Origin: a virus
Taxonomy: Duplodnaviria; Caudoviricetes
Strand: one strand, 5' to 3'
DNA length: 42,692 bases
Virus record (IMG/VR): IMGVR_UViG_3300021082_000014
Span: 1-42,692 of that record
The translations under genes and the position numbers were made by a program. The stretch's first letter is position 1, and each line of letters begins with the position of its first letter. Of this stretch, positions 17,781 to 42,539 are shown one piece after another. Under the pieces are notes generated by a model that saw only the letters and a program-made list of their open reading frames with translations, was not told the origin of the DNA and ran no database searches.

Positions 17781-19372
17781 CAGACCGTGATGGTTACCGT
17801 CCGTGGGGGTGGGCTGGCGAAGGCGGGGTTCTGCCAGGTCGTACCAGGCGCGGGGGTCTGGCCGCCGGCCCAGGGGTTGCCGACGCCCTCGGTGCCGCGC
17901 GAGGTCATGACCGGCGGCGGACTGGCGAAGGCCTGGGCCGGGACGGGCGCCGCGACCGCGGGGGCCGCTGCGGCACCACCCATGGCCGCCGCAGGCGCTG
18001 CGGCAGGCGGGCTGGCCACGCCCGTCGCGGGGGTCGTGGCCGCCGCCGCCCCAGCGGCCGCCGCCGCGGGGTGGTCCTGGCCCGTCAGGGCCTTGTAGCG
18101 CTCCAGCATCTGGCCCAGGACGCCGTAGGCCGCCTGGCCCTGGGGGCTCTGGATGTCGCCGCCGGCGCGCTTGACCATGTTCGCCGCGGCGTCATAAACC
18201 TGCTGCCCGCCGCCCAGGGCGGCGGTGTAGTCCCCGATGCCGCTCAGCATCTGGCTGGCGTCGAAGCCCGCGGGCATGGCGTGTAGGCCGCCGCCCAGGG
18301 GGCCGAACTTGCCGCTGCTGCTCTGGCCCTGGCCAGCCAGGCCCAGGACGTTGTTGAGCATGCCCTGCGCGGTCTGGACGCGCTGGTTGATCAGGGAGGC
18401 GCCGGTCGTACCCGCCTGGCTCTGGGCCGTCCGTTCGGCGCTGTAGACGCCGCTGGCGGCATTGATGGCGCTGGTCCGCTCCGCCGTCTCGGCCGTCTGC
18501 TTGGTCTCGGCCGCCCGCTGGGCGGCATCGGCCTTGGCCTGCTGCTCGCGGGCCTGGTTGGAACGCACCGTCTCGGCGCCACTCGCCTCGGTCGCCTTGA
18601 GTTGGCCTTGCTGGACGCCAAGCTGGCCCTGCTGGACCTCGTTGGTCTGCCGCTGGGTCAGGCCCTGCAGCGCAAGCTGGTCCGACGCAAGCTGGCGGTT
18701 GAGGTCGTCGCGCTCCTTGTCGTAGGCCAGTTGGGCCGCGCGCAGGTCGGCGTCGGAGGCGTTCTTGTTCTCGTCGAGCGACAGGCGAAGCTCAGCAATC
18801 TTGGCGTTGTGGGCCGCCGTCGACGCCGCGGTGGCGGCGTTCTGGGCGGCGATCTGGTTGCTGACGTTGGCCGTCTTGTTGTTGTCGCCGGCGATCTTGA
18901 GCGCGTTGTCGATCTGCTCTTTGGTCTGCCCCTGGTCGCGCAGCTTCGCGTCCATGGTGGCGATTTCTTCGTCGGTCAGGTACAGCCCGCGCTTGGCAAC
19001 GTTCCCCTGACGGTTGGCGTCGAGGTCCTGCAGGGCCTTCAGTTCCTGGCGCGATTTGGCCGCTGCCGCCTGGGCCTGCTCCGCCTGGCCCTGGTTGGCC
19101 GCCGCAACCGAGGGCGTCTCGCCGGCGGGCTTCTCGCCCTTGCCCGCGTCGATCAGGTTGAAGTCGATGACCCCGCCGGTCAGGGGACCCGCGTTGCCCT
19201 GCGACTCCAGGGTGATCGTGCGGCGCGTGCCGTCCGACTCCTCGATGACGGCCGTGTACTGGGTGCCGCCGGGCAGGGCCTGCCCGGTCAGTTCGTCCTT
19301 CTTGCTCGTCGGCTCCCCGATGAGCTTCGCGCCAGGGAACTTCTGGGCAATCAGATCATCAATGACGGGCAT
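17780..19372 (-). CDS. Putative internal virion (ejection) protein with long coiled coil
   Basis: Ala/Gln-rich heptads, Ala/Pro-rich tail, no Cys. Confidence 0.55.
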   Translation of the reverse strand: MPVIDDLIAQKFPGAKLIGEPTSKKDELTGQALPGGTQYTAVIEESDGTRRTITLESQGNAGPLTGGVIDFNLIDAGKGEKPAGETPSVAAANQGQAEQAQAAAAKSRQELKALQDLDANRQGNVAKRGLYLTDEEIATMDAKLRDQGQTKEQIDNALKIAGDNNKTANVSNQIAAQNAATAASTAAHNAKIAELRLSLDENKNASDADLRAAQLAYDKERDDLNRQLASDQLALQGLTQRQTNEVQQGQLGVQQGQLKATEASGAETVRSNQAREQQAKADAAQRAAETKQTAETAERTSAINAASGVYSAERTAQSQAGTTGASLINQRVQTAQGMLNNVLGLAGQGQSSSGKFGPLGGGLHAMPAGFDASQMLSGIGDYTAALGGGQQVYDAAANMVKRAGGDIQSPQGQAAYGVLGQMLERYKALTGQDHPAAAAAGAAAATTPATGVASPPAAAPAAAMGGAAAAPAVAAPVPAQAFASPPPVMTSRGTEGVGNPWAGGQTPAPGTTWQNPAFASPPPRTVTITV

Positions 19373-22300
19373 CAGCGGCTCCCGGTGGTCAGTGTAGGCG
19401 CCACCAGGCGGCCGGACTCGCGGCGGGCATTGGTCAGCCGCTCACCCCGCTCCTTATCACCCACCGACGCCGACCAGGCGGTGTAATTGCGGGTGTTGGC
19501 GCGGTCCAGCAGGCGCACCCAGTAGGCCGCCTTCTGGGCGTCGGTCATCTTCTGGTAGTTCTTGTCGTCGAGGATCTTGGCGTAGTCGCGCACCAGCAGG
19601 CCGCGGGCGGTCGCCACCTGGCGCTGCTCGCGCTCCGTCAACTGGATCTCGCGGCCGTCACGGCTGACCGTCTTGGGGTACTGGTCCCACTGCGGCACGT
19701 CGGTGTAGCCGCGCTGGCGCAGCTTGTTGATCTCGACCTCCAGCGGGCTGACGGTGCGGCTGTTCTGCTTGAGCAGCGCGCCGGCGAAACCTTGCTTCTC
19801 GCGCTCCTCCGGCGCACCGGTGTAGGGGTCGACCCGCGCGGGTAGCTGCTGGCTCAGGATCGGCGTGCGGCTCTGGAACTGCTCCCCGAAGGCGCCGGGT
19901 AGCTCGCGGCTGACGTCGCGCTGGACGGGGTCGATGCCCTGGGCCGCGCTGGCCAGCAGGGCCGGCGAGAAGCGGCTGGTGTAGCTGACGGCCGTCTTGG
20001 CCAGCGCGCCGGGACCGAGGCCCTCAGTGCCGATGGCGTGGGCCAGGTCGACAGCGCTGTTGAGGTAGCTGGCGTCCATCATCACCCGCAGGGTGGCGCT
20101 CAGGGCCGTCTGCTGGACCCGCGGATCGGACCAGTCGATGCCGCTCTTGCCCTGCTTGGCCGTGACGCCCGTGGCCGACTCGTAGATCGCTGCGGGGACC
20201 GCCAGCGGGATCTGGAACGGCCCCCAGCCCTTGTAGTCATACCACTGGCCGCCGATCTTGACGCTGCTGGGCCGCTCAGGGTTGTCGGGCCCGGTGATGT
20301 TGCCCGCGGCGACGTTGCTGATGATGGTCATCGAGACCATGCTCTGGACCAGCATCTCGGCCGCCTCGTGGCTGGCCGTGCGGGCGTCCCCCTTGGCCAG
20401 CCCGCGCGCCAGCTTCCAGCCGTGGATCGCCTCACTCAGCACCGGCGTGCGCTGCAGGCCCAGCTTCCAGATGGCGTCGGGCACCCCACTGAAGGGGACC
20501 AGGGCATCGACCGCGGCGCCCAGGAACTGCATGCCCGGGTTGGTCGAGTTGAGGAAGTTCTGCTTCCAGTCGCTGATCCGCTGGCCCAGCCCCTGGCCGC
20601 CCTCGCTGCTGAAGACGCTGGTCGCGCCGGCCTTCTTACCCGCCTCGAAGATGTCGTCGCTGTTGTGCATGATGACCGCGTCCATCTGCTGCTGGGTCAC
20701 CGCGCCGGCCTCGCGGATCAGCCGCTGGGCCTCCATGGTCGCGCCCATGTTGCCGGCGACGACGCGGAAGAAGTCGTCCGCGGCACCCAGGGCGAGCAGG
20801 AACGGGTGGGCCTTGAGCGTGCTGGGGGCACCCGGCGTGGTGCGGCTGGTGCGGCCGGTCTTGACCGCCTGACGCGCGGCCCGCCAGGCGTCGGGAATGC
20901 TGCCCCCGGCGGCGATCAGGCTCAGCAGAGCATCCTGCTCGCGGCCCTCTACTGCGGCCACCAGGGGCTGTTTCAACATCTCCGTCAACTGGCTGCCGAT
21001 GTTCATGACGTGCGTCCCGAGGGCCGACAGCATGAAGTCCTTGCTGGTGGCGATGAACTCGCCGCCGACGGTGCGACTGGTGTTGGTGCCCGGCTTGGGC
21101 GGGCCCATCTGGTGCGCGGCGAAGTCGAAGGTGGCCCGCAGTTGGGCCAGGTCGGGGCCAGCCCCGCGGGCCAGGCCCATGGCGCCCCGCACGGTGCCAG
21201 GGGCCACACTGCCCGCGAGGGCCCCCAGGATGTCACGGTTGACCCGCCCCAGGGTGTCCTGCTTCTCCTGCTCAGTCATGCTGAACTCGCTGGCGGCCGC
21301 GCCGGCCAGGCCGCCCGCCACCCGCGGCACGTTGCGCGCGAGCAGGCTGGCCAGGCCGCGATTACGCATCGCGCCGGGGGCCACCGCGCCAATGATCGCC
21401 GCCGCGCCCAGCTTCGACAGACGGTTGGGGTCGTTCTCGTCGGTCTCCGCGGCGCCCGCGGCGGCCCCGGCTGCGGCGCCGCCCAGGTACTGCGCGCCGG
21501 GCGCGCGCATGTAGTTATCGACGATCCGCTGACGACCCGGGGCGATGGGTGGCGCACCCTGCGCCCCGCCGATGGTCTCGGCCTCGGGCATCATCTTGGG
21601 CTGGGTCCGCACGATCTGGGTGCCGGCGATCTCGGGCGTCGGGTCGAGGTTGCGGACGGGGATGTCGTTGCCCGCCGCCTTGGCCCGCGCGGCGATCTCC
21701 TCGGCCACCCGCTGCACGCTCCAGCTATCGGGGTTGTCGCGGACCAGGCCCATCCGCTGGGTCAGCTTGCCCGGCGGCTGGTTGAGGTAGATCGCCTGGA
21801 TGTCCTCGACGCGCGGGTCCAGCACCAGCGCCTCGGTGCGGTTGCTCTGCTTGATGGCCGCCTGGTTGAGCGCCCTGGCCTCGCTGGGGTCAATCTTGTT
21901 GGCCGGCTTGCCGACGGTGCGGACGGGATTCATCACGTCGATGGCGGCCAGCCGCGCGGGCTGGATACGCGCGCTCTCGCCGCGCAGCAGGAGCGCGGCA
22001 ATGACGTCGGGGTCGGTCAGGCGGCCACCCTTGATGGCGTTCTGGATGGCCTGCGGCATACCCGCGATGAGCGTCGCCATGCGCATGTCCGCGGCGCCGC
22101 TGGCCCCCACCGCCAGGTCAGTGCTGGCGATCTTGCGACCATCACCGACGTCGACGCCCTCGGCTTCCCAGCCGACCTTGCGCGCGCCCAGCGGGCTGCC
22201 CACGTCGGTCGTGGTCGCCCCGACCAGGCTTTGCTCGCCCTCCCACATCATCTTGCGCAGGCCCTCGGGCGTGCCCTTGACGTGGGCCGGGTAGTCGGGC

Positions 22301-25300
22301 GCGAGCGGGCCGAAGTGGTGGTGGAAGGTCGCCACCATGGGTGTCTCAGGCTTCCACACGATGTACAGCGGCGCGGCCTGGGTCGACACCAGCGGCTCGC
22401 CCGCGCCGATGTAGCCGTACGTCCGCATCAGCGCCCCCGGGTCGACCTGGCCCGTCTGGGGATCGGCCATCTGGGTGCCGCCCGTGAAGGCCACGTCGCT
22501 GCCAGGGCCCTCGCGCAGGGTGAAGTCGCGCGCCCCGGGCATATCCAGCCGCGGCGGCTCGCCGGGCTTCTGGGCGTTGTTGACGATGGCCTGGCTGATG
22601 CGCGCCTGCTGCTCAAAGTCGCCCTGGGTGAACTTGCCCGTGAACTGCCCCCGCCGCGCCAGGGCCAGGCTGGCCAGGTCGCCCTGGCCCGAGATGACGG
22701 TCAGGGTGTCCTGCAACTGGTCCAGGCCGCTATGCCAGATGCGCAGGGCCAGCGCCTGGGCCTGCTGGTTGTCGAGCGCCCCGCCAGCCAGCTTCTGGCC
22801 GATGTAGCCCACCACGCGGCCCTGCAGGCTGGCGATGCGGTTGGGGGTGAGCGCCTCCATGACCTGATGCAGGCTCTCGCGGCTGTAGCGCTCGACGACT
22901 GGCGCCAGGGCCCGCTCCGGCTGATCGGTCGGGATCGCCCGCGCGGCCACACTGAGCGTGTTCTTGGCCGCCTGGATGATCTCGCGGCTGGGGCTAATGG
23001 GGGCCGTCTTGCCCGCCAACTCGGCCGCGGCGATGGCCGCCTGACGCGCCCCGCGCGGGCCCGCCATGAGACCGACCAGGCTGGCTGTTCCGATTTTCAG
23101 ACCACGATTGGGGTCGTTCTCGTCGACGGCAGCTTCTGCGCCAGCGGCCCCAGCGATGGGGCTGGTGAAGGCCGCGGGGCCGCCCTGGTAGGCGTTGCGG
23201 GCCTGGTCCAGCCCCTTCTGGAACAGGATACGAACGTCGTGCTCAACAGGCTGACCAGTGGTTGGGTCGACCATCGGCACCCGCTTGCCACCCTGGTGCT
23301 TGATGCCCGCGTAGCCCATCGCTTCGAGGACTTGATTGGCCTGCGCCTGGGGCGAGACGTCGTAGTTCGAGCCTGGGGCTGACCGCGCAAAAGTGCGCAT
23401 GTAGCCAACCAGGGCCTGCCACACCTTGTCGCCGTTCAGGTTGCCCAGGCCGCCATACGCCCCGGCCTGAGTGCGGACATTGGAAATGAAGCTCTGGGCA
23501 TCCAGCGGGTCACCCAGGAAGTCACCCACCGCCTGGCCAATGGCGTCCAACTGGTCGGGGTCGACCGGCGCATCCATGTCGAACAGCGCCTGGTTGCGCG
23601 GTACGTCCAGGGCGCGCACGTTGGGCCCGGCCGGAATGGCCTGGGTCATCTCGTCGATGTCTTGTTGCAAGTTGTCGATCTGGATCTGGTGCTTGTCGAT
23701 CTCGACGCGAGCGCCCTCGGCCACGCCAGGGTTATCCGGATGCTTGGCCGCCAGGTCGGTCCAGCCTTTCTGCCGCGCCTTCAGGTCATCAATCTGGCGA
23801 CCCTTTTCCGCGACATCGTTGAACTCGGTGGGCGCGCGGTTCTGGGCATAGCCAGGGGCCAGGACATCGCCGCCAGGCTGGTGGGGATACTGCGTCCGCA
23901 GCATCGTCGCCTGACGCTTGTCGCCCTTGGCCATCAAATCGTCGATCTGCTGCTGGATCTCGGGCGGGCGACGCGAGCCCATCTCACTGACCACGCCGCC
24001 CGCCACCCGCGGATCGCTGGTCGTGTACAGCCCGGGGCCGTAGATGTTCTGGCTGCTATCCCGCGCCAGGTCGGCCCGCTCGAAGGTGCTGGACCCGCCG
24101 TGGTACATGCGAACGATGTCCTGGGCCCGCTGCTTGAAGCCCTTGGCCACCTCGACCAGGCGGTCGACGTCAAGCTCACCGCTCTCGTCGACGAGAAAGC
24201 GGGCGATGGGCCCCTGCATGAGGTCCTTGGCGATCTCGCCAATGGGCGCCCGGGCCCACTCCTCGGCCCCGCGCTGGAAGCGTTCGGGGGTCCGCGCGAA
24301 GGCCTGCCCCAGCGGCGTGCGGGCCCAGTCGGCCAGGCCATTGCTGAGGATGCGCGCGGCCGCCGCGGCCGGCGGTTTGAGGTACTGGCCCAGGCCCTCC
24401 AGCGCCGGCGCAGGCATCTTCATGTTGACCAGCAGGCCGATCCAGTCGGCCATCTCGACGCCCGCAATCGGCTTGACGCCAACCAGGCCAGCACCCTTCA
24501 GGCCCGCACTGACGATGCCGCCCGCATCCATCTCGGCCGCCAGGCCCAGGCCGGGGCTGGTGCGGCGAATGACCTCGCCAATGGCGTCGTCGTAGCGGCC
24601 CTCGGCCACCGCGCGGGAGGCGTACTGGATCGCCGGCAGGACGCCACTGCCGGTCTGGGTATTGCGGCCGTATTCATTGATGGCGCGGATGGGGTCCTTG
24701 ACGGCCTCCTCGGGCGTCATCGTCGAGCCCGGCGTGATGCCCTGAAGCTGCTGTCCCAGCGCGCTCCCCGCGCCCTGCACCAGGCCGGCCGCACTGCGTC
24801 CCGCCAGGGCCAGGTTCTTGCCGACCTCGAACGGCGCCGAGGGCGCGTTGTACTGGGCCTGCTGCGGATTGGTCAGGTCGTCGCTGGGTGTGCCCTGGGC
24901 CGTGGACGGACTGCGGAAGCCGGCCTGGAACTGGTCCAGCGGGTTGTCGAAGCTCCTGGGCTTGGCGATGTTGGCGAAGATGTCCTCGCCCGTCTTGGTC
25001 ACCTTGCGGCTGATCTCGTCGGCCTGCTCCTGCAGCAGCATGCGGCGGGTCTCGGCCTCGCTGCGCTGCATGGCCGTCGTGCGGTCGGCATCGGCCTGCA
25101 TGCCGCGCAGCATGGTCTCGCTGTCGCGGAGCCGCTGGCCGGCCTGATCAGCCAGGGTGCGGCTGGTGCTGAGGACGTCATCGACGCCCTGCCGCGCGGC
25201 CGTGCCGACATTGCTCACGCCCTGCTCAATCTGCGGCGCGTAGCGGTCGACAATGCTCTGGATCTTGCCGACGTAGTTGGGGTCGGTCATGTAGCCGCCA

Positions 25301-26553
25301 GCCTTGAGCGCGCTGACGAAGCCCTCGACGGTCTGCTGGCCCTTGGCCGCGGCGTACCGCGGGGCGTTCATGACGAGGTCGGCAAAGTCCTGAAAGCTCT
25401 GGGTCAGGTTGTCGTAGGCGCGGAAGGCGTCACGGATCTGGACCGGGCCCTGGCCATAGTCTTCCCAGGTCCCCGCGTTGATGCTGCCCGCCGGGCCCTG
25501 GCCCTTGATGCCGAACAGGTTGTTGCCCTCAGCGAACTTGCCGAAGCCCGTCTCGTTGGCGGCCATGCCGATCATCGCCGCGGCCGGAATACCCGTGCGG
25601 TCGGCCACCGCCTGAGCAGCCGGCGCGATGCTGCGGATGAACGCCTCGGGGCTGCTGGTGTCCAGCTTGATGTCGGGCACCACACTCGGGTTGGCGCCCT
25701 TGGTCGGCACCGCGGGGTGGTCGGCAAACAGGGCGCCCTGGGCGGCACCCATGGTCCGCTCCATCTCCTGCGGACTCATCCACTCGCTGCCCGCCTTGAG
25801 GTCGCGGCCCGACTGCCCGACGTGGAACTTGCCCGAGGCCTGGTCATACGCATCGGCAAAAAAGTAGTGGCCAGGGGTGGAGATGGTGATCGGGTTGCCA
25901 CTGCTCGCTTCACGGGCGAAGTCATCCCAGCGCGCGCCAGCCACGACGTGGGTGTCGACGCCCATTTGCTTGAGTAGCTGCTGCTGACTGCTGATGCCGG
26001 CCATGCCGCTGTTGGGCGTCCAGCCGTATTGCTTGGCCAGGTCGGTCGCCTCGCGCAGGGTCGGATTGCGGCCGTACATCTGAGCCCACCGCACCGCGGC
26101 CGCGGGCCCGCAGGCCGAGTAGGCCTCCTCGGCTGTCAACTGGTCGTTGCCGAACTGGCTGATGTCCGAGTAAGCGCCCGCGGCAGCCTGGCCCAGTGGG
26201 CTCTGGGCCGCCTGCTGAGCCACGTTGCCGACGGTCTGCTTGGCCTGGTCGACGGCGGCGTTGGCGGTGCTACCAGCTTGCGCCTGGGCCTGGTTGACGT
26301 AGTCCATGAAGCGGTCGCCCATGGACTGCTGGGGAACCTGGGCTTGCTGCGGGGCCAGTTCAGCCTGGCGCTGGTTGACGTAGGCCTGGAACTGGTCGCC
26401 GTAGCTGGTCGCCGCCTGCTGAACGGGATTGACGGCCTGCTGCTGGCCCTGCTTGAGCAGCGCCTCGCCGGCTGACTGGCCCTGCTTGATGTAGTCGTCG
26501 AAGCGGCCCAGCAGGTCCTGCTTGGCGTCGTCTTGGAACAGCCAGCCAGGCAT
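19372..26553 (-). CDS. Giant polyvalent internal virion protein (2393 aa): C39-like peptidase, GH73 glucosaminidase, ADP-ribosyltransferase-like domain, unknown domain, helical C-terminus
   Basis: SACGPAA...GHYFFAD; ANETGFG...NNLFGIKG...FRAYD...GYMTDPNY; YHG...GPGLYTT...GYAGI. Confidence 0.85.
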   Translation of the reverse strand: MPGWLFQDDAKQDLLGRFDDYIKQGQSAGEALLKQGQQQAVNPVQQAATSYGDQFQAYVNQRQAELAPQQAQVPQQSMGDRFMDYVNQAQAQAGSTANAAVDQAKQTVGNVAQQAAQSPLGQAAAGAYSDISQFGNDQLTAEEAYSACGPAAAVRWAQMYGRNPTLREATDLAKQYGWTPNSGMAGISSQQQLLKQMGVDTHVVAGARWDDFAREASSGNPITISTPGHYFFADAYDQASGKFHVGQSGRDLKAGSEWMSPQEMERTMGAAQGALFADHPAVPTKGANPSVVPDIKLDTSSPEAFIRSIAPAAQAVADRTGIPAAAMIGMAANETGFGKFAEGNNLFGIKGQGPAGSINAGTWEDYGQGPVQIRDAFRAYDNLTQSFQDFADLVMNAPRYAAAKGQQTVEGFVSALKAGGYMTDPNYVGKIQSIVDRYAPQIEQGVSNVGTAARQGVDDVLSTSRTLADQAGQRLRDSETMLRGMQADADRTTAMQRSEAETRRMLLQEQADEISRKVTKTGEDIFANIAKPRSFDNPLDQFQAGFRSPSTAQGTPSDDLTNPQQAQYNAPSAPFEVGKNLALAGRSAAGLVQGAGSALGQQLQGITPGSTMTPEEAVKDPIRAINEYGRNTQTGSGVLPAIQYASRAVAEGRYDDAIGEVIRRTSPGLGLAAEMDAGGIVSAGLKGAGLVGVKPIAGVEMADWIGLLVNMKMPAPALEGLGQYLKPPAAAAARILSNGLADWARTPLGQAFARTPERFQRGAEEWARAPIGEIAKDLMQGPIARFLVDESGELDVDRLVEVAKGFKQRAQDIVRMYHGGSSTFERADLARDSSQNIYGPGLYTTSDPRVAGGVVSEMGSRRPPEIQQQIDDLMAKGDKRQATMLRTQYPHQPGGDVLAPGYAQNRAPTEFNDVAEKGRQIDDLKARQKGWTDLAAKHPDNPGVAEGARVEIDKHQIQIDNLQQDIDEMTQAIPAGPNVRALDVPRNQALFDMDAPVDPDQLDAIGQAVGDFLGDPLDAQSFISNVRTQAGAYGGLGNLNGDKVWQALVGYMRTFARSAPGSNYDVSPQAQANQVLEAMGYAGIKHQGGKRVPMVDPTTGQPVEHDVRILFQKGLDQARNAYQGGPAAFTSPIAGAAGAEAAVDENDPNRGLKIGTASLVGLMAGPRGARQAAIAAAELAGKTAPISPSREIIQAAKNTLSVAARAIPTDQPERALAPVVERYSRESLHQVMEALTPNRIASLQGRVVGYIGQKLAGGALDNQQAQALALRIWHSGLDQLQDTLTVISGQGDLASLALARRGQFTGKFTQGDFEQQARISQAIVNNAQKPGEPPRLDMPGARDFTLREGPGSDVAFTGGTQMADPQTGQVDPGALMRTYGYIGAGEPLVSTQAAPLYIVWKPETPMVATFHHHFGPLAPDYPAHVKGTPEGLRKMMWEGEQSLVGATTTDVGSPLGARKVGWEAEGVDVGDGRKIASTDLAVGASGAADMRMATLIAGMPQAIQNAIKGGRLTDPDVIAALLLRGESARIQPARLAAIDVMNPVRTVGKPANKIDPSEARALNQAAIKQSNRTEALVLDPRVEDIQAIYLNQPPGKLTQRMGLVRDNPDSWSVQRVAEEIAARAKAAGNDIPVRNLDPTPEIAGTQIVRTQPKMMPEAETIGGAQGAPPIAPGRQRIVDNYMRAPGAQYLGGAAAGAAAGAAETDENDPNRLSKLGAAAIIGAVAPGAMRNRGLASLLARNVPRVAGGLAGAAASEFSMTEQEKQDTLGRVNRDILGALAGSVAPGTVRGAMGLARGAGPDLAQLRATFDFAAHQMGPPKPGTNTSRTVGGEFIATSKDFMLSALGTHVMNIGSQLTEMLKQPLVAAVEGREQDALLSLIAAGGSIPDAWRAARQAVKTGRTSRTTPGAPSTLKAHPFLLALGAADDFFRVVAGNMGATMEAQRLIREAGAVTQQQMDAVIMHNSDDIFEAGKKAGATSVFSSEGGQGLGQRISDWKQNFLNSTNPGMQFLGAAVDALVPFSGVPDAIWKLGLQRTPVLSEAIHGWKLARGLAKGDARTASHEAAEMLVQSMVSMTIISNVAAGNITGPDNPERPSSVKIGGQWYDYKGWGPFQIPLAVPAAIYESATGVTAKQGKSGIDWSDPRVQQTALSATLRVMMDASYLNSAVDLAHAIGTEGLGPGALAKTAVSYTSRFSPALLASAAQGIDPVQRDVSRELPGAFGEQFQSRTPILSQQLPARVDPYTGAPEEREKQGFAGALLKQNSRTVSPLEVEINKLRQRGYTDVPQWDQYPKTVSRDGREIQLTEREQRQVATARGLLVRDYAKILDDKNYQKMTDAQKAAYWVRLLDRANTRNYTAWSASVGDKERGERLTNARRESGRLVAPTLTTGSR

Positions 26554-27005
26554 CAGACCATCTGCGGCACGGTCGGCACCGTGGGCGGTGGGGGCGCGGG
26601 CATCTCCGGTACGGCGGGCAGCGGTAGCTGGGCCGCGACCTGTGGCTGGGCCACGTCCAGCGCCTGCGGCAGCGGCCCCGGGGGCAACACGGACGGCGCC
26701 TGGATGGCGCTCGCGTCAGGCGGCGGGTGGATCTCCCCGGGGGTGCTGGTCTGGGGCAGGCTGACGCCGATCCGCTCAACCACCTTCAAGAACTGGTCAG
26801 GGTCGCGCTGGGCCTCCTGATGCAGCCACTGGCGGTCGCCGCTCTCGTACTTCTGGCGATAGATGCGGTCGAGAGTAGCGTTGTCGACGCGCGCCATGTC
26901 AGGCCCGCGCGTCGGAAAGATCTGCTTGGCCAACTCCTGGGCGTCGCCGTTGACCTCGCGGGTGACCTCATCCTGAAGCTGCAGGATGTCGTCGTCTTTG
27001 GGCAC
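26553..27005 (-). CDS. Hypothetical protein with Pro-rich C-terminus (150 aa)
   Basis: Coupled ORF between the portal region and the giant gene. Confidence 0.75.
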   Translation of the reverse strand: MPKDDDILQLQDEVTREVNGDAQELAKQIFPTRGPDMARVDNATLDRIYRQKYESGDRQWLHQEAQRDPDQFLKVVERIGVSLPQTSTPGEIHPPPDASAIQAPSVLPPGPLPQALDVAQPQVAAQLPLPAVPEMPAPPPPTVPTVPQMV

Positions 27006-27410
27006 TCAGGGCTCCAGGGCCGTCACCCGCGCGTCGAGGCTGTTGAGCGCCGTGTCCTGCTGGGTGTTCTTGGTCTCGATGGCGCTCAGGCGGTTGTTCT
27101 GGGTGATCTGCTCTGTTTGCAGGGCGGTGATGTTGGTCGCCTGGGTCGCATCGAGGGCCTGAATGGCGGTAATGGCCGTCGTGTTGCTGCCGATGCTGAC
27201 GTCCTGGGCAGTGTCCTTGGCGGCCAGGGTGAGGGCCGTCGCCTCCAGCGCCGTCAGCCGCATCTGGATGGCCCCCAGGTCGACCTGATTGGCCTTCAGG
27301 GCGGCGATGTCGGCCTGGATGGGCACCAGGCTGGCGTCGATCATGGCCTGCACGTCAGCCCCGCTCAGCGGCGCGCCGGCGCCACTCGGGACGTAGCTCT
27401 GCTCAGTCAT
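27006..27410 (-). CDS. Coiled-coil fibre-like protein (134 aa)
   Basis: Heptads with core Asn/Gln (NTTAITAIQ, NITALQ, NNRLSAIE, LDARVTALE). Confidence 0.7.
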   Translation of the reverse strand: MTEQSYVPSGAGAPLSGADVQAMIDASLVPIQADIAALKANQVDLGAIQMRLTALEATALTLAAKDTAQDVSIGSNTTAITAIQALDATQATNITALQTEQITQNNRLSAIETKNTQQDTALNSLDARVTALEP

Positions 27411-29341
27411 GCGCCTGGCCCTCCGACGACCTGCTGGTATGGTGGCGGAGCGACGCCAGCCCCATTTGGTGCCGCGGCGAGCGCGCCCAGGTCTGGCACG
27501 CCACCCATGCCTGGGCCGCCGCCTTCAAACACGCCAGGCTGGGGCGCCCCGGGTTGCCCACCTGCGGGTAGGCCAGGCTGGCCCTGGGCGTTGAGTTGGC
27601 CTTCGAGCGCAAGCTGTTCCGCCTGTTGGCCCTTGGCCAGCATGTCGCCACGGCCGGCCATCATGAAGACCTGGCTGTCCAGCCACTGCTGGTACTGCGG
27701 CGACTGGCGGATGCGGTCGCGGGCCTTGCTGCGGCGGATCTCGTCGGGGTTGTCGCCCAGGTACTCGACGGCTTCGTCCTGGCCCCACGTGCCGGCCGCC
27801 AGGCGCTCGTGGGCATAGCGAGCCTTGATCATGTCGTCGGTCGGCAGCGCCTGCTGCACTTCCCAGACGATGCGAACGGGCCGCTTGTTGTCCTCGGGAC
27901 CGATGCCGATGTAGCCGCTGGGGTTGTCCTCCGCGGTGTAGCCGACCCAGACCTTCTCCTTGACCTTGTACGTGATCAGGTCCCACAGCTTCTCGGTCTG
28001 GCCCTTCAGGAAGGCCGCCAGGCCGTTGCTGACCGGCGCCACGCGGGTGCGGGAGTAGCTGAGGACCTGGCTGATGGCGAAGCCGGCGCCCTCCATGCCG
28101 CTGAGCGTGGTGACCCTGGGGCTTTCAAGCTGGCTGATCGCGTTGTCGATCAACTGCATGTGCTTTTCCAGGGTCTGCGCATCGGGGTAGTCAATCCGCT
28201 GCAACTGCCGCCCCGGGGCCAGGTTGATCACCTCGCCAGGCAGCGGGCCAGGGTCGCGGTCACGCGGCTTGCCGTCGTTGCCGATGACCGGCGCGGCGCT
28301 GGACTCGCCGTAGTTGACCAGCGGCGACAGCAGGTCCCTCGCCACGTACTGGGCGTGCATCGCCCGCAGGTACTGGCGGTACTGGACCAGCCACAGCTTC
28401 GTCTGCGAGATGCCCCAGCCCACTTTGCGGTTCTTCCAGTGGTTCATCCACAGGCCCGGGGCGAAGTCATACGGCACGCCAAAGGGGTAGCCATGGCGAA
28501 ACTGTTTGACGATCTTGCTGGTCGGCGTCCCCGAGTAGTTGCTGCCTGAGACCGCCCAGCTACACCACAACTCGTCCCAGTGCTCGATCAGTTCGATGCT
28601 GCTGGGCAGGACCTTGGTGTTGTTCTCGCCCTGCGGCTGCCCAAGCTCCTCGGGTACGAGGTTGCCGTCGGCGTCCAGGCCCAGGCGGTAGCGGCGCAAG
28701 GTGGACCGCAGCGGGCGTTCGGTGACTTCGAGGACCTCGCACAGGCGCCCGCCCGACCACACCGGGTAGATCGTGCGGGCGTCGACCGCCATCCAGGCGA
28801 ATGGCGGGCCAGCCTGTTTCTTGGCGTCCTCGGTGCTCTGGTCGTAGTCGTCGTAGTCGCTGTCCTTGGCGTTTTTGCCTGGCGTGGGGATGCTGTAGCG
28901 GCGGTCCCAGGCATCGCGGTTGTAGAGGATCTTGCCCCAGCCGCCACCGTCGTTCAGGGCCGCGTCGGTGACCGCGTTCATCGTGTCCTGGCCGGGCTCC
29001 CTGGTGGCCAGTTCCCACAGCGTGCTGGTGGTGAACTTCTCGCGCAGGCTGGCGTTGGTCTGGGCGTTGTCGCTCTCGCCCGTCTTGAGCGCCAGGACCG
29101 GCCGCTCCAGGGTCATCATCGCCGTCTGCTGGAAGGCCTCCTCGGTGATGTCGGGGTCGCGTGGGTCGACGTTCACCAGGGTGTACTTGGCGTCCGCGCC
29201 ACTCATCGCCGGGACCTTCATCTCGCGCTGGTCGCGGTAGTTGTCAAGCTGGGTGTCGTCGTCGATGTACAGGTCGTGCAGTTCCGACTGCAGATGCTGC
29301 AAGTACTCTCGGCTGGGCGCCGCAACCTTCTTCTCAGCCAT
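27407..29341 (-). CDS. Portal protein
   Basis: 644 aa downstream of TerL; DAALNDGGGWGKI, VDARTIYP, IELIEHWD, HGYPFGVPY...GWGI; Gln/Pro/Gly-rich tail. Confidence 0.8.
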   Translation of the reverse strand: MAEKKVAAPSREYLQHLQSELHDLYIDDDTQLDNYRDQREMKVPAMSGADAKYTLVNVDPRDPDITEEAFQQTAMMTLERPVLALKTGESDNAQTNASLREKFTTSTLWELATREPGQDTMNAVTDAALNDGGGWGKILYNRDAWDRRYSIPTPGKNAKDSDYDDYDQSTEDAKKQAGPPFAWMAVDARTIYPVWSGGRLCEVLEVTERPLRSTLRRYRLGLDADGNLVPEELGQPQGENNTKVLPSSIELIEHWDELWCSWAVSGSNYSGTPTSKIVKQFRHGYPFGVPYDFAPGLWMNHWKNRKVGWGISQTKLWLVQYRQYLRAMHAQYVARDLLSPLVNYGESSAAPVIGNDGKPRDRDPGPLPGEVINLAPGRQLQRIDYPDAQTLEKHMQLIDNAISQLESPRVTTLSGMEGAGFAISQVLSYSRTRVAPVSNGLAAFLKGQTEKLWDLITYKVKEKVWVGYTAEDNPSGYIGIGPEDNKRPVRIVWEVQQALPTDDMIKARYAHERLAAGTWGQDEAVEYLGDNPDEIRRSKARDRIRQSPQYQQWLDSQVFMMAGRGDMLAKGQQAEQLALEGQLNAQGQPGLPAGGQPGAPQPGVFEGGGPGMGGVPDLGALAAAPNGAGVAPPPYQQVVGGPGA

Positions 29342-29963
29342 GCTGCAGCCAGGTCCGCCAGACGTGCATCAGGTCACTCTGCCGACTCATGGGCACCTCG
29401 TGCGGCCCGAAGCGTTGCCCGGTGACGCTCAGGAAGCGGTGGTGGTCGTACATCTCGACCCAGCCGCGGCGGCGCCGCCCCTCGGGCAAGTGGCCCTTGA
29501 CGAAGATGCGCACGCCATCACCCCCGGGGGACGTCTCGGTGTAGCTGTCCAGGCTGGCGATGATGCGGTCCGCCTCCGCCTGGTGCTGGCTCACGTGATC
29601 GAGATCAACGCCCACGAGGCCCCAGCGCGGGTCAACGCAGAAGCTGAGGCCGTCCCAGTCCTCGTCACCGCTGCTGAAGCTGTACGCCGCCCAGCAGTCG
29701 TCGAAGCTGGCCCACGTCGACTCGTCGCGGCCGTCCGCAGGCTCGCCGTTCGGCTGGCTGGGTGGCTTTGACCAGGCGCCCTTGGCGTCCTGGGCGTACT
29801 TCCAGACCGCCCACGCGCGCTGGTGGCGCAGGCTGGGCGGGATGTTCCAGCGATTGACCGGCAACACGCCGCCCTTGGGCGGACCCTTCCAGGGCCGCGG
29901 CTGCTCCGCGCCGGCGAGCGTCTGGAGCCACCTGGGGAGCGGTGGCCGGACCAGCGGGCTCAT
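29334..29963 (-). CDS. Stand-alone NrS-1-like primase-polymerase (AEP) catalytic domain
   Basis: IPPSLR..RAWAVW...KPP...DESTWASF...DGLSF...LVGVDLDH...SYTETSPGGDGVRIF...VEMYD..RFLSVTG. Confidence 0.85.
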   Translation of the reverse strand: MSPLVRPPLPRWLQTLAGAEQPRPWKGPPKGGVLPVNRWNIPPSLRHQRAWAVWKYAQDAKGAWSKPPSQPNGEPADGRDESTWASFDDCWAAYSFSSGDEDWDGLSFCVDPRWGLVGVDLDHVSQHQAEADRIIASLDSYTETSPGGDGVRIFVKGHLPEGRRRRGWVEMYDHHRFLSVTGQRFGPHEVPMSRQSDLMHVWRTWLQHG

Positions 29964-29980
29964 TGGGCGGGAGTGTACGC
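29964..29980 (-). promoter_or_regulatory. Possible -10 box (TACACT) for near-leaderless expression of the orphan primase-polymerase
   Basis: TACACT lies 8 nt before ATG 29963; the 17-nt gap has no SD. Confidence 0.3.
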
Positions 29981-31237
29981 CTAGCGCGAGAAGGCGTACT
30001 TCGTCGTGGTGCTGGCCGGCGCCTGAGCCGCCCCCAGGTTGGCCAGGTAGAGCGCCGTCACGGTGTCGTCGTGGAGCCCCTCGGGGGCGCCATACTTGAC
30101 CATGCCGGTCGGTGTGCGGCTGGACTCGTAGGCCTTCAGTTCCCCCGCCTGGACGGGCTCGTCCAGCAGGGTCACGTCACCGTTCTCGATGACGAGCACG
30201 AGGGCCTCGACGGCGGCGCCTTTGCTGGCGTTCGTCGCTGTCCAGCCGTAGACCGGCAACGCCGGCTGGGGCTTGCCGACCAGGGGCTGGTAGCCCCGCT
30301 GGAGACGCTCGACCAGCGGCCCGCCCATGCTGTTGGCCTCGGCCACGATCAGCCGCGGGCGGTACAGGCTGTACCAGCGATGCAGGCGGGAGACCTGCAG
30401 GTCGTAGCTGACCTCGGTCATGCGGTCCAGCGCCACCTGCTCCATGAGCGTCGCGTCCATGATGCTGAACACGGTGAAGTCGCCGCTGCGGGCCCAGTCG
30501 ACGCCCATGACGTAGCTGTGACCGGGGCGGGGCGGCTCAGGCTTGAGGCGAGCGACCGCATCGACACCCCGGAACACGCCCAGCCCGGTCAGGTTCAAGA
30601 ATAGGGCCAGGACCTCCTGGGCGAACTCCCGCTCGCTCATCGTGGCCCGCGTCGCCTCGATCTCGCTCTTGGCGATGTACGGGTTGGCCATGGTTGGCAT
30701 CTGCCAGGCCATCCAGTCCGGCGCCAGCGGATCGATGCCGCGCTGGTACAGCCCGTAGAAGTCGTTCAGGCCCTTGGGCGTGCTCAGGAACCAGGCGTCC
30801 CCGATCAGGTCCATCAGCGTCGGCCGCAGGGCCAGGTTCCATGTCGACAGCAGGCTGGGCACCATCGCCGCCTCGTCGACGATCAGCCGCGCGTACTTGC
30901 GCCCGCGGGCCGGATCGGGCCCATCCAGCGACCAGCACTCGACCGTGCCGCCGGTGATCAACTCCAGGCGGTACTCGGTCTCCAGCTTGCGCCGGGTGAC
31001 GGGCGCCAGGGTGTGCTGGATGGTCCGCCAGAACTCGCTCAGCAGGCGGTACGTGGGCGCCAGGTAGGCCGCCGGCTGGCCAGCCAGGCTGGTCTCGACC
31101 AGCAGGTGCTGGGCCAGCGTGCTCTTGCCCGTCCGCCGCCCCAGGTCGACGACGTTGAAGCGCCGCCGTTCGGCCAGGATCTGCTGCTGGGCCGCATGCG
31201 GCCGCGGCAGCTTGACGACGATCTCAGTGCTGGCCAT
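29981..31237 (-). CDS. terL: Terminase large subunit
   Basis: PHAAQ; Walker A GRRTGKS; Walker B LIVDEAA; LSTPKG; nuclease GVDWARSGDFT and HDDTVTAL. Confidence 0.95.
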   Translation of the reverse strand: MASTEIVVKLPRPHAAQQQILAERRRFNVVDLGRRTGKSTLAQHLLVETSLAGQPAAYLAPTYRLLSEFWRTIQHTLAPVTRRKLETEYRLELITGGTVECWSLDGPDPARGRKYARLIVDEAAMVPSLLSTWNLALRPTLMDLIGDAWFLSTPKGLNDFYGLYQRGIDPLAPDWMAWQMPTMANPYIAKSEIEATRATMSEREFAQEVLALFLNLTGLGVFRGVDAVARLKPEPPRPGHSYVMGVDWARSGDFTVFSIMDATLMEQVALDRMTEVSYDLQVSRLHRWYSLYRPRLIVAEANSMGGPLVERLQRGYQPLVGKPQPALPVYGWTATNASKGAAVEALVLVIENGDVTLLDEPVQAGELKAYESSRTPTGMVKYGAPEGLHDDTVTALYLANLGAAQAPASTTTKYAFSR

Positions 31238-31598
31238 TGGCGGGGACGTCAATCACCCGCGCGGCCGATAGCTCCGGGACCGTCTCGTACTCGACGCGGA
31301 CCAGCATCTGGCTCTCGCTCTTGATCACCTCGACGGCCTTGTAGCCGGTGCGGTCGAGGATGTCCTTGGCCGCCATCAGTGCCACGCCCGGCTGCTTGTG
31401 GCCGATTAAGCTGCCCATGCGGGTGATCGCCGGGTCAACCAGGGCGGCCAGTCGTTCCCGCGCGTTCTCTTTGACGTGTGGCGCTGAGCCGCCGTGCATG
31501 CGGCACACGGTCCCGCCGCGGATCGCCGGATTCTGACACGGCAGCTTGCTGTGCCTGTTATGGGCGCTGCACTTGCGGCGGGTGTGCGGCAGGCTCAC
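31224..31598 (-). CDS. Putative terminase small subunit with HGG-type Cys/His motif
   Basis: CSAH...PCQNPAIRGGTVCRMHGGS; AAKDILDRTG; overlaps terL. Confidence 0.75.
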   Translation of the reverse strand: MSLPHTRRKCSAHNRHSKLPCQNPAIRGGTVCRMHGGSAPHVKENARERLAALVDPAITRMGSLIGHKQPGVALMAAKDILDRTGYKAVEVIKSESQMLVRVEYETVPELSAARVIDVPANGQH

Positions 31599-31831
31599 GC
31601 GGCCTCTTTGTGCTTACGCACCTTCGCTTTAGCGGCTTTGGGCGGCTTGCGAAACCTTTGCAGACCACCCAGCTTCTCGACCAGGGCGCGCGCCTCAGCC
31701 TCCGCGCCAGCCAGGTTGCTGGCCCAGCCGTAGGCCGTGTGGTCGCACAGCCACAGTTGGTCGGTGATCTGGACCATCTCGCAGCCATGGGGGCAGGCGC
31801 TGTCGCGCTTGGTGCCGACGATTTGTCGCAT
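31595..31831 (-). CDS. Small basic Cys-containing protein (78 aa)
   Basis: SD GGAGG before ATG 31831; CPHGC...LWLCDH; Lys-rich tail. Confidence 0.65.
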   Translation of the reverse strand: MRQIVGTKRDSACPHGCEMVQITDQLWLCDHTAYGWASNLAGAEAEARALVEKLGGLQRFRKPPKAAKAKVRKHKEAA

Positions 31832-31847
31832 GCTGGCCTCCGCGAGC

Positions 31848-32663
31848 TTAGCCGACCCAGGGGTCGAACTCAGGCTGTTTGAGCCTGATGAACGGCGGCT
31901 TGTCGGTCGGACAGACGTGCTCGTGGCTCCACTTCGAGCCGCACTCATAGCACGCCGGGTGCTTGCCGTTGCACGTGAAACGCCCCGCGTAGGCCTCGAC
32001 GACGATGGGCCTGGCACGGTCCCAGAACGGCCCGAACGAGTTCTCCAGGGTCCGCGGGCTGTCGAAGACCTGCAGGCTGCCGAGGGCCCGATTCAGCACG
32101 ATGTACTGGAACCGCGCCGCGACCCCGAACTGGTGGTTGACGGCCCACAGGTAGATCGCCGGCTGCCACAGTTCCTTCGCCACGCGGTCTGGTCCCCAGG
32201 TCCCCAGGCTGGTCTTGAAGTCATAGACCACGGGGCCAGACGGGTGGTCCAGATCCAGCAAGTCGATGGCGCCGACGGTGGCCGCCCCCAGGCTGGCGTC
32301 GCTGGGGATGCTGAAGACCCATTCACTGCGGCCTTTCAGGCCCAGGTGCTGGACCTGCTCCAACAGGTCGATGGCGCCGCTGACGACGCCCGGCGGGATA
32401 GGTTGGCCCCACCAGGCGTACGCATGCTTCAAATGGCCTCTGAGAGCGCGCTCAGCGTCGTGGCCGGCGTACAGGTCCTCCAGGGCCAGGTGCATCGCTT
32501 GGCCATATGCCAGCGGCTCTGAGGGCTCAATTTCGCTATGCCGGACATAGCGGTCGGCAAAGACCCCGGGGCACTGGTCCCAGGCCATGAAGCGGGAGGC
32601 CGACCAGTGGGGATAGACCAGGCTGTCGGCCGGCTGGTCGAGGACGTTGACGGGCTGACTCAC
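31848..32663 (-). CDS. PD-(D/E)xK RecB/Cas4-like exonuclease
   Basis: WSASRF..WDQCP; GQAMHLALE; GAIDLL; VYDFKT; QPAIY; C-terminal Cys cluster; GTGA-coupled start. Confidence 0.85.
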   Translation of the reverse strand: MSQPVNVLDQPADSLVYPHWSASRFMAWDQCPGVFADRYVRHSEIEPSEPLAYGQAMHLALEDLYAGHDAERALRGHLKHAYAWWGQPIPPGVVSGAIDLLEQVQHLGLKGRSEWVFSIPSDASLGAATVGAIDLLDLDHPSGPVVYDFKTSLGTWGPDRVAKELWQPAIYLWAVNHQFGVAARFQYIVLNRALGSLQVFDSPRTLENSFGPFWDRARPIVVEAYAGRFTCNGKHPACYECGSKWSHEHVCPTDKPPFIRLKQPEFDPWVG

Positions 32664-34015: not shown

Positions 34016-36097
34016 CTATTCTAGCTCCATTTCAGTCTGGTCTGTGCCCCGTCCCGGAACCCCGTCTAAGCCCTCCCCCTCCGGGGGGTTGGGGGAGCTA
34101 GACGAGGTTCGCAATCCGGAGGGCAGCCAGAACACCGTCGGGGGTGGCCCCGAGACACCGTTGCGGGGGCCGGGGCCTGTCTCGACCTGGCCCAGCGCGA
34201 CCCGATTCTTCAACTCCGCCCGGGTGGCCACGTCCTGGCCATGGATATGCCTGGCCAGGACCAGCAGCGTCACGCCGGTGTCGGCGTCATGACAACCCAG
34301 ATCCCACAGCGCGTCGGCAAGCTGGTCCCACAGCGGGCGGCGGTCGTGGCTGGGTGGTGTCACCGTGACCCGCGGGGCGTCGTCGCCGCGGGCCTGGTAG
34401 TCGCCCTCGCGCAGCGTCAGGCCCAACCAGGCGGGCGTCTCCGACAGGCGGCCCTTGCCCTTCAGGTCGCGCGCCGGTTGGGCGCCGTCGGGGTCGCCCT
34501 TGACGTAGTCGAGGTCGAGCAGGATGTCGGCCGCGCCGGCGTAGGCGCTGGAGCCGCGGCCGGCCTGGCCCACAGGTCCACCCGACTTGCGGCCGTGGCG
34601 CAGGTACAGCACGGCGTAGCCGTCGTTGGCCAGCTTGCGTAGCTCGCGCATGGCCTCCTGGGCATCGCCGGCGTCGTTCTCGTCGTCGATGCCGGCCAGC
34701 ATGCTCAGGGTGTCGATGACGATCAGATCGACCTGGCGCAGCTTGGCCCGCTGGCGCAGGGTGCGCACGATGGTCTTCCAGGGATAGGTCCCCAGCCTGG
34801 TCTGAGGGACCATGAAGAAGCTCTCGTCGAGGTCGATGACGCCCCATCGCTCCGCCGCCGCGCGGAAGCTGCCGACGCCCTCCTCGGTGACGTACAGGAT
34901 GGTCCCGGTGGTCATCTTCAGGCCGCAGAATTCGGCCGCGCCGGTGGCCATTGCGCGGCTCAAACACAGCGCCAGGCTGGTCTTGCCGACCTTGGGATAG
35001 GCCGTCAACTCCGTTACCAGTCCTTTACCGACGAGGCCATGGCAGACCCAGTCGATCTGCTCCGAGACCAGGCTCCGAAGCTCCGCCATGGTCATCTCTT
35101 GAAACAGGCTATCGGCCCCAACCGAACCCTGTCCGGCCGTTTCGGCCCCAGGGATTTGGGCTGACGAGGTTCCTGGACGGGGTTCTCCGTCACCATCCAG
35201 ACGTCCCGAGAGCTTCTCGTCGGGCGGGTTGATGGCGTATTTCGCGGCGCTGTGAGCGATCCGCAAGACGTCCGCGAGCGTTACCGGAGGTTTACAAAAC
35301 TCACTGTTGATGGCCTCCAGACGGAGGCCAATCTCGTACTCCTCCAGACCATCCTCGCCGCGCAGCCGACCCGCGATGGACATCAACGTGTTGTCCCGGG
35401 TGCCCTCTGGAATGTCGGTCATCGGCCGCCAGCCGTAGGTCCCCTGACCCGCCAGGCCAGCGATCCGCGCGACCGCGACCTCGCGCTCGCCACCCAGGTC
35501 AATGACCCAGTCGGGCAGCCGCGGCAGATCGGCCAGGCTCTCCTCGTCCAGCGGCCAGGCCCAGCGGTACGTCGCATGGCTGACGTGCTGACTGGGGGGC
35601 AGGATGACGTAGCCGCCCTGGCCGCGGAAGTCGATGCCGCTGCGCTTCGAGAACAGCGTCGGCGCCTCGGCCCGCCAGGCGAAGAAGCGGTGCTGGCCGC
35701 CCACCCGGCCGGTGTAGCTGAATGGCCCGGCCGGCAGTTCGCCCATGTCGTTGGCGGTCCGCACGGCCAGGTCACCATCAAGGTCGACGACCACCACGCC
35801 GGACACCTCGCCGCAGGCCAGACCGATGTTGGCACTGGGCCACTGCCGCCACCACTTCTCCACCTCGGCTTCAGTCGGGACGCGAGCCTGGTACTCGGCC
35901 CACGCCACCAGCGGCGTCTTGCCCATCTTGGTGCAGGTCACGCGCTGCCAGAAGACGCGCTCACCCTGGCGCGTGCGCTCCTGATGGGTGTGCGACACCA
36001 GGGCGGGGCAGACGGGGAAGATCGGCAGGCCCAGGCTGCGGTAGTAGAGGGCCCAATCCAGCAGCGTAACCGGCTGCGGGGTACTATCTGGTTGCAC
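34016..36097 (-). CDS. Bifunctional primase/polymerase + PriCT-1 + AAA_25/RepA-like helicase (693 aa)
   Basis: SD GAGGAG then GTG 36097; ALYY..LGLPIFP, GKTP, ANIGLACG...VVVDLD, TGRVGGQH, IDFRGQGGYVILPPS; IPEGTRDNTL; Walker A AYPKVGKT; LIVIDTL; RHGRK..GRGSSA. Confidence 0.9.
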   Translation of the reverse strand: MQPDSTPQPVTLLDWALYYRSLGLPIFPVCPALVSHTHQERTRQGERVFWQRVTCTKMGKTPLVAWAEYQARVPTEAEVEKWWRQWPSANIGLACGEVSGVVVVDLDGDLAVRTANDMGELPAGPFSYTGRVGGQHRFFAWRAEAPTLFSKRSGIDFRGQGGYVILPPSQHVSHATYRWAWPLDEESLADLPRLPDWVIDLGGEREVAVARIAGLAGQGTYGWRPMTDIPEGTRDNTLMSIAGRLRGEDGLEEYEIGLRLEAINSEFCKPPVTLADVLRIAHSAAKYAINPPDEKLSGRLDGDGEPRPGTSSAQIPGAETAGQGSVGADSLFQEMTMAELRSLVSEQIDWVCHGLVGKGLVTELTAYPKVGKTSLALCLSRAMATGAAEFCGLKMTTGTILYVTEEGVGSFRAAAERWGVIDLDESFFMVPQTRLGTYPWKTIVRTLRQRAKLRQVDLIVIDTLSMLAGIDDENDAGDAQEAMRELRKLANDGYAVLYLRHGRKSGGPVGQAGRGSSAYAGAADILLDLDYVKGDPDGAQPARDLKGKGRLSETPAWLGLTLREGDYQARGDDAPRVTVTPPSHDRRPLWDQLADALWDLGCHDADTGVTLLVLARHIHGQDVATRAELKNRVALGQVETGPGPRNGVSGPPPTVFWLPSGLRTSSSSPNPPEGEGLDGVPGRGTDQTEMELE

Positions 36098-40488: not shown

Positions 40489-40523
40489 TATGTCCCATGT
40501 CCTTGCCGGCATGCGGGGATTCG

Positions 40524-40561
40524 ATGTTGCATACATGGTGCATATCGGGTATAAATAGGGC
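40524..40561 (+). promoter_or_regulatory. Repeated early promoter, copy 1
   Basis: TTGCAT-17nt-TATAAA-6nt-GTG 40562. Confidence 0.85.
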
Positions 40562-41654: not shown

Positions 41655-41661
41655 CCCTTGA

Positions 41662-41699
41662 ATGTTGCATTCATGGTGCAGATCGGGTATAAATAAGGC
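41662..41699 (+). promoter_or_regulatory. Repeated early promoter, copy 2
   Basis: TTGCAT-17nt-TATAAA-6nt-ATG 41700. Confidence 0.85.
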
Positions 41700-42490: not shown

Positions 42491-42501
42491 GCTACCCAGT
42501 G

Positions 42502-42539
42502 ATGTTGCATTCATGGTGCATATCGGGTATAAATAGGGC
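42502..42539 (+). promoter_or_regulatory. Repeated early promoter, copy 3
   Basis: TTGCAT-17nt-TATAAA-6nt-ATG 42540. Confidence 0.85.

Follow-up and report, generated by a model that had tools for sequence, protein, structure and literature searches.

The NrS-1-type members of the AEP superfamily are known as replicases. AEPs are defined in PMC5862659 by a motif I of the type hhhDhD, a motif II of the type sxH and an acidic residue in motif III; according to the same paper, some AEP families have Arg, Lys or Gln instead of the motif II His. The available sections of PMC8718748 describe an SPS loop and a Tyr/Phe sugar gate as features of NrS-1. They report that S108 is a key residue and that the effect of S110A is milder, that Y146F retains activity and dNTP preference, and that point mutations inactivating the helix-bundle domain (HBD) weaken priming, improve the extension of short primers and lower the processivity of N300. 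These sections deal with point mutants of the HBD and contain neither a deletion of the whole HBD nor a His-to-Arg variant. Here we describe a phage locus in which the core of such an enzyme stands without its priming and helicase parts and is under selection among virion genes.

The window, by which we mean the whole stretch analysed, is a complete virus record of 42.7 kb (42,692 nucleotides) with 68.5% GC; its relevant features are collected in Table 1. A preliminary description, made from the letters alone, had reported a 209-aa ORF with AEP motifs between a terminase and a portal gene. The translation, which starts at an ATG, contains these motifs exactly as reported, namely VDLD (D120, D122), SPGGDGVR (S145-R152) and EMYD..RFLSVTG (E170, R176, F177). 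The gene begins 17 nt after the stop of the terminase large subunit (TerL) gene and its 3' end overlaps the start of the next ORF by 8 nt, in agreement with the overlap already noted. Its GC3, 0.91, is like that of the neighbouring genes. The window sequence occurs in freshwater-sediment and soil runs. Since the whole stretch is found without difference in two runs (both of which may be the source) and an independent 151-nt contig from another study spans 29211-29361 without difference, the AEP stop is not an assembly error. Near the 5' end of the gene, at 29900-29902, two gaps of one base each appear in one contig from run X4; a strain indel or an artefact of the alignment may account for them. 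A promoter scan of 26500-32500 found none, and the runs listed for the window sequence include no RNA run. Elsewhere in the window, an AT-richer repeat of 47 nt is present three times (40523-40569, 41661-41707 and 42501-42547; copies 83-94% identical) upstream of small plus-strand genes and looks like a repeated early promoter or operator.

Table 1. Features of the window that bear on the AEP gene.
Feature	Position	Strand	Length	Evidence
Probable internal-virion/ejection protein	19372..26553	-	2393 aa	Pfam Glucosaminidase, Peptidase_C39_2
Putative portal	27407..29341	-	644 aa	Position, universal presence, weak Atlas lead
Stand-alone NrS-1-type AEP (Prim/Pol) catalytic domain	29334..29963	-	209 aa	
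Terminase large subunit	29981..31252	-	423 aa	Pfam Terminase_6N/6C, phrog_2
Probable terminase small subunit	31224..31598	-	124 aa	Weak phrog_2538 match, E 1.2e-4; position
Complete replicase, Prim-Pol + PriCT_1 + AAA_25	34016..36097	-		Domain matches

Of the two neighbours named in the preliminary description, TerL is confirmed by its Pfam and PHROG matches. The portal remains putative: searches of Pfam, PHROG, NCBIfam and PDB gave no named match, a scan with alignments matched 2 of 19 members to one unnamed PHROG, and the third-ranked ESM Atlas cluster, with SPP1_portal on 12% of its members, is a weak lead; the gene was found in 27 of 27 genomes. The nearest cultured relatives of TerL share 29-33% with it, so that the packaging strategy cannot be read from TerL, nor does the IMG/VR label 'direct terminal repeats' tell it. 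The ejection role of the 2393-aa protein is probable; its homologue in the related phage L029 has 1301 aa and an SLT domain, and the enzyme cargo of this protein thus varies. The second, complete Prim-Pol/PriCT/AAA gene mentioned earlier does have this domain architecture, with an open frame extending up to 36604. This replicase belongs to a different AEP family from the 209-aa protein.

PHROG primase families matched the 209-aa protein (best E 6.9e-32). Against PDB sequences it matched 7ola (E 1.7e-14 with the single sequence, 5.4e-27 with a profile) and NrS-1 chains (E ~1e-12), and no other solved structure. Its AF2 model (pLDDT 92.3, pTM 0.83) gave six Foldseek matches at E <= 0.001, all N-terminal fragments of NrS-1, the top one being 6jop, an N300 structure (E 9.1e-13, TM 0.66). 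As modelled, the protein is thus predicted to adopt the fold of the NrS-1 Prim/Pol catalytic domain, as had been supposed, with intact metal ligands. When aligned with NrS-1, S145 falls on S108, G147 on S110 and F177 on Y146, and R152 occupies the place of the motif II His. The predicted metal ligands are D120, D122 and E170, which we take to correspond to D78, D80 and E139 in NrS-1 numbering, the motif II His presumably being H115. The superfamily features are accordingly found in the fold (model and Foldseek), in motif I and in the acidic residue of motif III, while the sxH of motif II is not matched, Arg152 taking its place. The features of the NrS-1 type are present as an SPS-type loop instead of a zinc finger (S145-P146-G147) and as a sugar gate (F177); the third position of the loop is Ser in 22 and Gly in 16 members of the family. 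Particular to the family is an N-terminal PRW helix at about residues 10-20, the motif of which occurs in 13 of 1494 predicted ORFs, every one of them this AEP. There is also an added invariant GRRRR stretch.

The polypeptide contains no helix-bundle domain, its stop falling just after the catalytic domain, and no C-terminal helicase within its 209 aa. We considered the possibility of a split primase with a separate HBD gene. This was ruled out, because the NrS-1 HBD (PF22763) was found in none of 28 near-complete genomes. Judged by its predicted domain content, the protein falls outside the NrS-1 primase-polymerases proper, lacking both HBD and helicase; we regard it as a minimal, conserved NrS-1-type AEP in a packaging operon that is probably active.

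A length-limited protein search gave 37 matches with lengths of 184-227 aa; they include a near copy of the window protein, and the rest are 44-77% identical to it. Database members already exist, some labelled 'primase-polymerase (primpol)-like protein', and ESM Atlas holds an unnamed 202-aa look-alike cluster. From a DNA scan the best 80 viral loci were kept, 38 of them close (46-74%) and 42 distant (31-41%). Among these, the frame stops no more than 35 codons past the match in 37/38 close loci, L007 being the exception, and continues for at least 335 residues in 41/42 distant ones. In a tree, nineteen short relatives (including P0043, which at 149 aa may be a fragment) lie on one side and 24 others on the other with moderate support (82/82); the same split appears in a quick tree of 84 rows (support 90). 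No member was found among 16 GTDB loci, the best of which reached 42% over the domain, or in cultured phages (top-ranked matches ~36%, all under 60%), and the phage group is an uncultured one from soil and sediment. A longer protein, P0039 (610 aa), has two tandem NrS-1-type AEP-like domains before its HBD, the first of which looks degenerate.

Conservation and selection argue for a functional protein. In an alignment of 38 sequences (the window and 37 loci, the partial L038 being left out), D120, D122, H123, E143, P146, G150, E170, R176, F177, T181 and G182 are invariant, and the position of S145 holds Ser in 35 and Thr in 3. The metal ligands are thus unchanged although the median pairwise identity is 59%. 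Estimates of dN/dS reaching 0.99 in distant pairs were set aside because synonymous sites are saturated there at ~0.9 GC3, and only pairs with at least 70% identity and dS > 0.03 were used. In these (71 of 703) dN/dS ranged from 0.06 to 0.45 with a median of 0.20, in 14 non-overlapping pairs from 0.08 to 0.36 (each p <= 1.1e-4), and between the window and L002 it was 0.33, all well below 1 as expected under purifying selection. The signs of decay named in the preliminary description, that is, an absence of relatives, a neutral dN/dS or homologues that are all full-length, were not found, and the predicted gene is best described as a member of a stand-alone family of ~200 aa rather than as a decaying insertion.

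The Arg in motif II had been pointed out as unusual, a view that does not survive comparison with longer relatives. This position holds Arg in 36 and His in 2 of the 38 aligned sequences. Among 103 representatives of at least 400 aa it holds Arg in 60, His in 33 and Lys in 10; as these were ranked by an Arg-type profile, 60/103 is not a family-wide rate. Since the position is R, H or K only in 147/147 representatives and, on trees, the Arg family contains a nested subgroup with His, a basic residue is kept there. Together with the families recorded in PMC5862659, the Arg-bearing long relatives indicate that Arg152 does not exclude the protein from the AEPs. The idea that Arg marks truncation or inactivation arose from a first set, in which all readable full-length viral loci had His, and was overturned by the broader representatives. 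Going by these alignments, we regard the Arg as a natural variant, probably inherited from a replicase ancestor.

The position of the gene was followed in the 38 close loci among the best 80, several of which are near-copies of one another. The AEP lies between terL and the putative portal gene in 31 of them, and two more fit this placement but are cut by contig ends. In three, which are near-copies, it follows the large putative ejection gene, still within the virion operon and on its strand, and two have it in other elements. The terL-AEP-portal order proposed at the outset therefore holds for most loci, but the gene also occurs at other sites of the late operon. One of the other elements, L036, is a different phage of 60.5 kb with a different terminase (TIGR01630) and the AEP directly after terL; its 762-aa protein showed no detectable relation to the putative portal. 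The other, L033 (14.4 kb), has an integrase-like gene, a DnaB-N/AAA_25 gene and the AEP, with terL and two genes on the opposite strand, so that the AEP shares the strand of the DnaB-like gene and faces the terL genes. This contig, to which CheckV assigns 35% completeness, gave no portal or capsid match and could be either a satellite or a fragment. In metagenome locus L132 the AEP stands before the large putative ejection gene (virion operon, same strand), and in L029 after it, the genes being 88% identical over 615 nt (L132:714-1352 versus L029:4683-5315). Because the shared block is exactly gene-sized and lies on opposite sides, we conclude that the AEP moves as a gene-sized unit.

The slot between terL and portal takes other cargo as well: a GT2 glycosyltransferase, DUF5131, ParB and unknown genes occur there with or without the AEP, so that the position of the latter may only record an old insertion. 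A GT2 gene of ~250 aa recurs in the gap of L008, L018, L084, L090, L091 and L106 (assigned by Pfam in L008), and in L135 a GT2 glycosyltransferase gene follows the AEP in the same slot. An apparent AEP-portal fusion in L007 (L007:1777-4446, an 889-aa frame) was rejected: compared by eye with L010, L013, L014 and L037, it retains the usual AEP C-terminus and stop in another frame, and is most likely a one-base frameshift or an assembly error. No true portal fusion was found in 26 matches of longer relatives, in 54 Pfam scans of representatives and longer matches, or in 7 long viral frames.

The gene is optional. It is present in 10 of 24 near-complete relatives and missing from 14, a proportion that may be too high because the capsid query came from carriers. 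Among records picked by portal it occurs in 4 of 29 (1 of 5 near-complete ones). Of those picked by capsid, 36 of 80 had contigs of at least 17 kb and were searched; 19 of these were at least 90% complete, and 9 of the 19 carry the AEP (12 of 22 when three records added for carrying it are counted in). Roughly four in ten complete genomes of the phage group therefore have it. On trees of 25-27 genomes its presence changes 3 times (portal), 4 times (capsid) or 6 times (TerL), against about 9 for shuffled labels (9.3 for the portal and 8.6 for the TerL tree), which points to clustered inheritance with losses or regains. Presence shows no link to TerL type, and in 24 loci the pairwise identity of the AEP correlates weakly with that of TerL (rho 0.29) and of the portal (rho 0.16, p 0.056). 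Of 13 carriers, 7 have a Prim-Pol replicase, as do 3 of 14 non-carriers, and RecT clusters occur with and without the AEP. No replication module or partner gene goes with the AEP among ~90 gene clusters in 27 genomes; the AEP cluster alone separates carriers from the rest. A serine integrase cluster (8/13 versus 1/14) was discarded as a partner, as its p of 0.004 is uncorrected among ~90 clusters and near-sister genomes are included. Most relatives have an integrase, and none of their integrase clusters matched the window. In the genomes G012-G067 a single virion lineage is combined with six or more integrase clusters and with various replication genes (Prim-Pol/AAA_25, DUF3987 and unnamed ones), a sign of strong module shuffling.

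Taken together, we favour the view, with a probability of roughly 0.4, that the AEP is an accessory DNA polymerase, expressed late and dependent on primers, whose task is to fill gaps in the phage DNA at about the time of packaging. A bare NrS-1-type catalytic domain would have been retained in the virion operon as an optional gene. Its active site is intact and selected in the absence of HBD and helicase, which suggests a primer-dependent polymerase for short fill-in. By analogy with the biochemistry of NrS-1, it would extend existing 3' ends, prefer dNTPs (Phe standing at the position of Y146), be unable to prime efficiently and make short products only; such an enzyme of low processivity is likely to fill short gaps or recessed ends at about the time of packaging. 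That it recurs among the genes of the virion operon points to late expression, and position alone would have it co-transcribed with terL and the putative portal gene. The least certain step is the substrate, which may be nicked or gapped concatemer DNA arising from recombination, resolvase cuts or primer removal. In T4, according to PMC10893049, packaging is hindered by nicks, gaps and branches in the DNA, and endonuclease VII is found in association with the portal, though long nicked DNA (500 bp) packages normally. The gene would have separated on one occasion from an Arg-type AEP-HBD-helicase replicase and since then have been passed on, lost and now and then relocated; that host repair enzymes can do the same job would explain its loss in many relatives. 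Counting against gap filling are the 14 near-complete relatives that lack the AEP, the cargo slot, the weak co-divergence and the orientation in L033. Packaging gap filling had been among the initial suggestions, and it stands here as the best guess; a required role in packaging is not supported.

Such a role, as a part of the packaging motor that might for instance duplicate terminal repeats, is suggested by the tight coupling to both window neighbours (17-nt gap, 8-nt overlap). It is nevertheless a remote prospect, largely refuted by the absence of the gene from complete sister genomes of carriers on the portal tree: an essential accessory of terminase or portal would be expected in all phages with the module, not in 10 of 24, and with 6 changes on the TerL tree (versus 8.6) no TerL type goes with the AEP. 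We also find it very improbable that the protein binds DNA without any catalytic activity or that it is a remnant in decay. The loss of HBD and helicase, the change of His to Arg and the added GRRRR stretch could be read in that sense, yet the metal ligands have stayed invariant despite sequence divergence, dN/dS is 0.08-0.36 and Arg is common in full-length relatives. Patchy, mobile and selected genes are typical of conflict genes. This pattern, including the gene-sized L029/L132 move, fits a nucleotidyltransferase for counter-defence or exclusion, which would tail ends without template or make a small nucleotide product. We hold this to be quite improbable, as the active site is the one expected of an ordinary dNTP polymerase that copies a template, the AEP has no accompanying partner gene, and the window neighbours are packaging genes; the marginal PADLOC match to the CRISPR-associated PrimPol model PDLC01618 (E ~1e-3, 2 of 4 proteins) is attributable to the shared fold. 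Nothing we found points to the nucleotide product that had been put forward.

Two other readings were considered. As an auxiliary enzyme of replication or recombination, serving restart or fill-in after annealing by RecT or exonuclease, it would owe its place in the late operon to chance; the cargo hotspot, the presence that follows the portal tree as linkage alone would give (3 changes versus 9.3) and the company of replication-strand genes in L033 are in keeping with this. It is rather improbable all the same, in view of the lack of a tie to any replication module (neither the Prim-Pol replicase nor RecT) and of the moves within the main lineage, which stayed inside the virion operon. Those same positions, all in the terL-portal slot or on the flanks of the 2393-aa putative ejection gene, would also suit a protein carried in the virion, bound to the portal or accompanying the ejection proteins, that repairs, fills or joins genome ends just after entry and so helps circularisation or shields the ends from host nucleases. 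The conserved PRW motif could serve for docking, portal or MuF proteins with fused enzyme domains have been read as carrying injected effectors (PMC5512222), and a PrimPol derived from a mobile element performs microhomology end joining (PMC11724360). This is unlikely, however, given that no true portal fusion was found among the longer relatives scanned, L007 looks like a frameshift, and PRW, found in no other phage protein, is not a general capsid tag. A broader version, in which a primase-derived core was re-purposed as a portal-docked or virion-carried enzyme of DNA-end repair that would seal gaps during packaging or fill and join ends on entry, we consider doubtful. Our preferred reading thus remains gap filling around packaging.

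A search of mainly open-access papers found none on a stand-alone NrS-1-type domain in a packaging operon; the domain tables of PMC5862659 might have a bearing on this. Its members are already in databases; the family itself is real and conserved, with a role that we infer, and is apparently undescribed. The nearest long relatives in trees are uncultured AEP-HBD-AAA_25 or D5 replicases (P0045, P0051, P0053), which share the motif II Arg but, unlike the phage AEP, retain HBD and helicase. The best sequence match among solved structures, covering the whole AEP domain, is the 'DNA primase' of 797 aa in PDB 7OLA/7OM0, which we take to be the SaPI PriRep1 primase-helicase; it differs in being a full primase-helicase replicase with a motif II His. 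Fill-in and end repair are carried out by repair-type AEPs such as LigD PolDom and Prim-PolC, which belong to other families and other contexts. AgaPP, as described in PMC11724360, likewise uses an AEP domain for fill-in and end repair, but in another family and context; none of these three was among the Foldseek matches of the AEP model at E <= 0.001.

The closest likeness is to NrS-1 N300 (6JOP, 6JON, 6A9W, 7RR3, 7RR4; PMC8718748 and PMC7102993), with which the phage protein shares the Prim/Pol fold (TM 0.62-0.66), the DxD and Glu metal ligands, the SP[SG] loop and the aromatic sugar gate. Unlike NrS-1, it has no HBD or helicase, and no HBD elsewhere in the genome, has Arg for the motif II His and an extra N-terminal PRW helix, and is encoded optionally in a virion operon. 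Whether or not it acts at packaging or entry, nature offers here a small AEP that is free of priming and has a motif II Arg, on which the function of the domain without its helix bundle and the use of Arg as a substitute for the catalytic His are directly testable. Should it act at packaging or entry, a role on which we found no paper, T4 endonuclease VII (gp49) would have in it a counterpart among polymerases. The T4 enzyme is a functional precedent only: according to PMC10893049, it is a DNA-repair enzyme that clears packaging substrates, but it is an essential nuclease of unrelated fold whose association with the portal has been shown.
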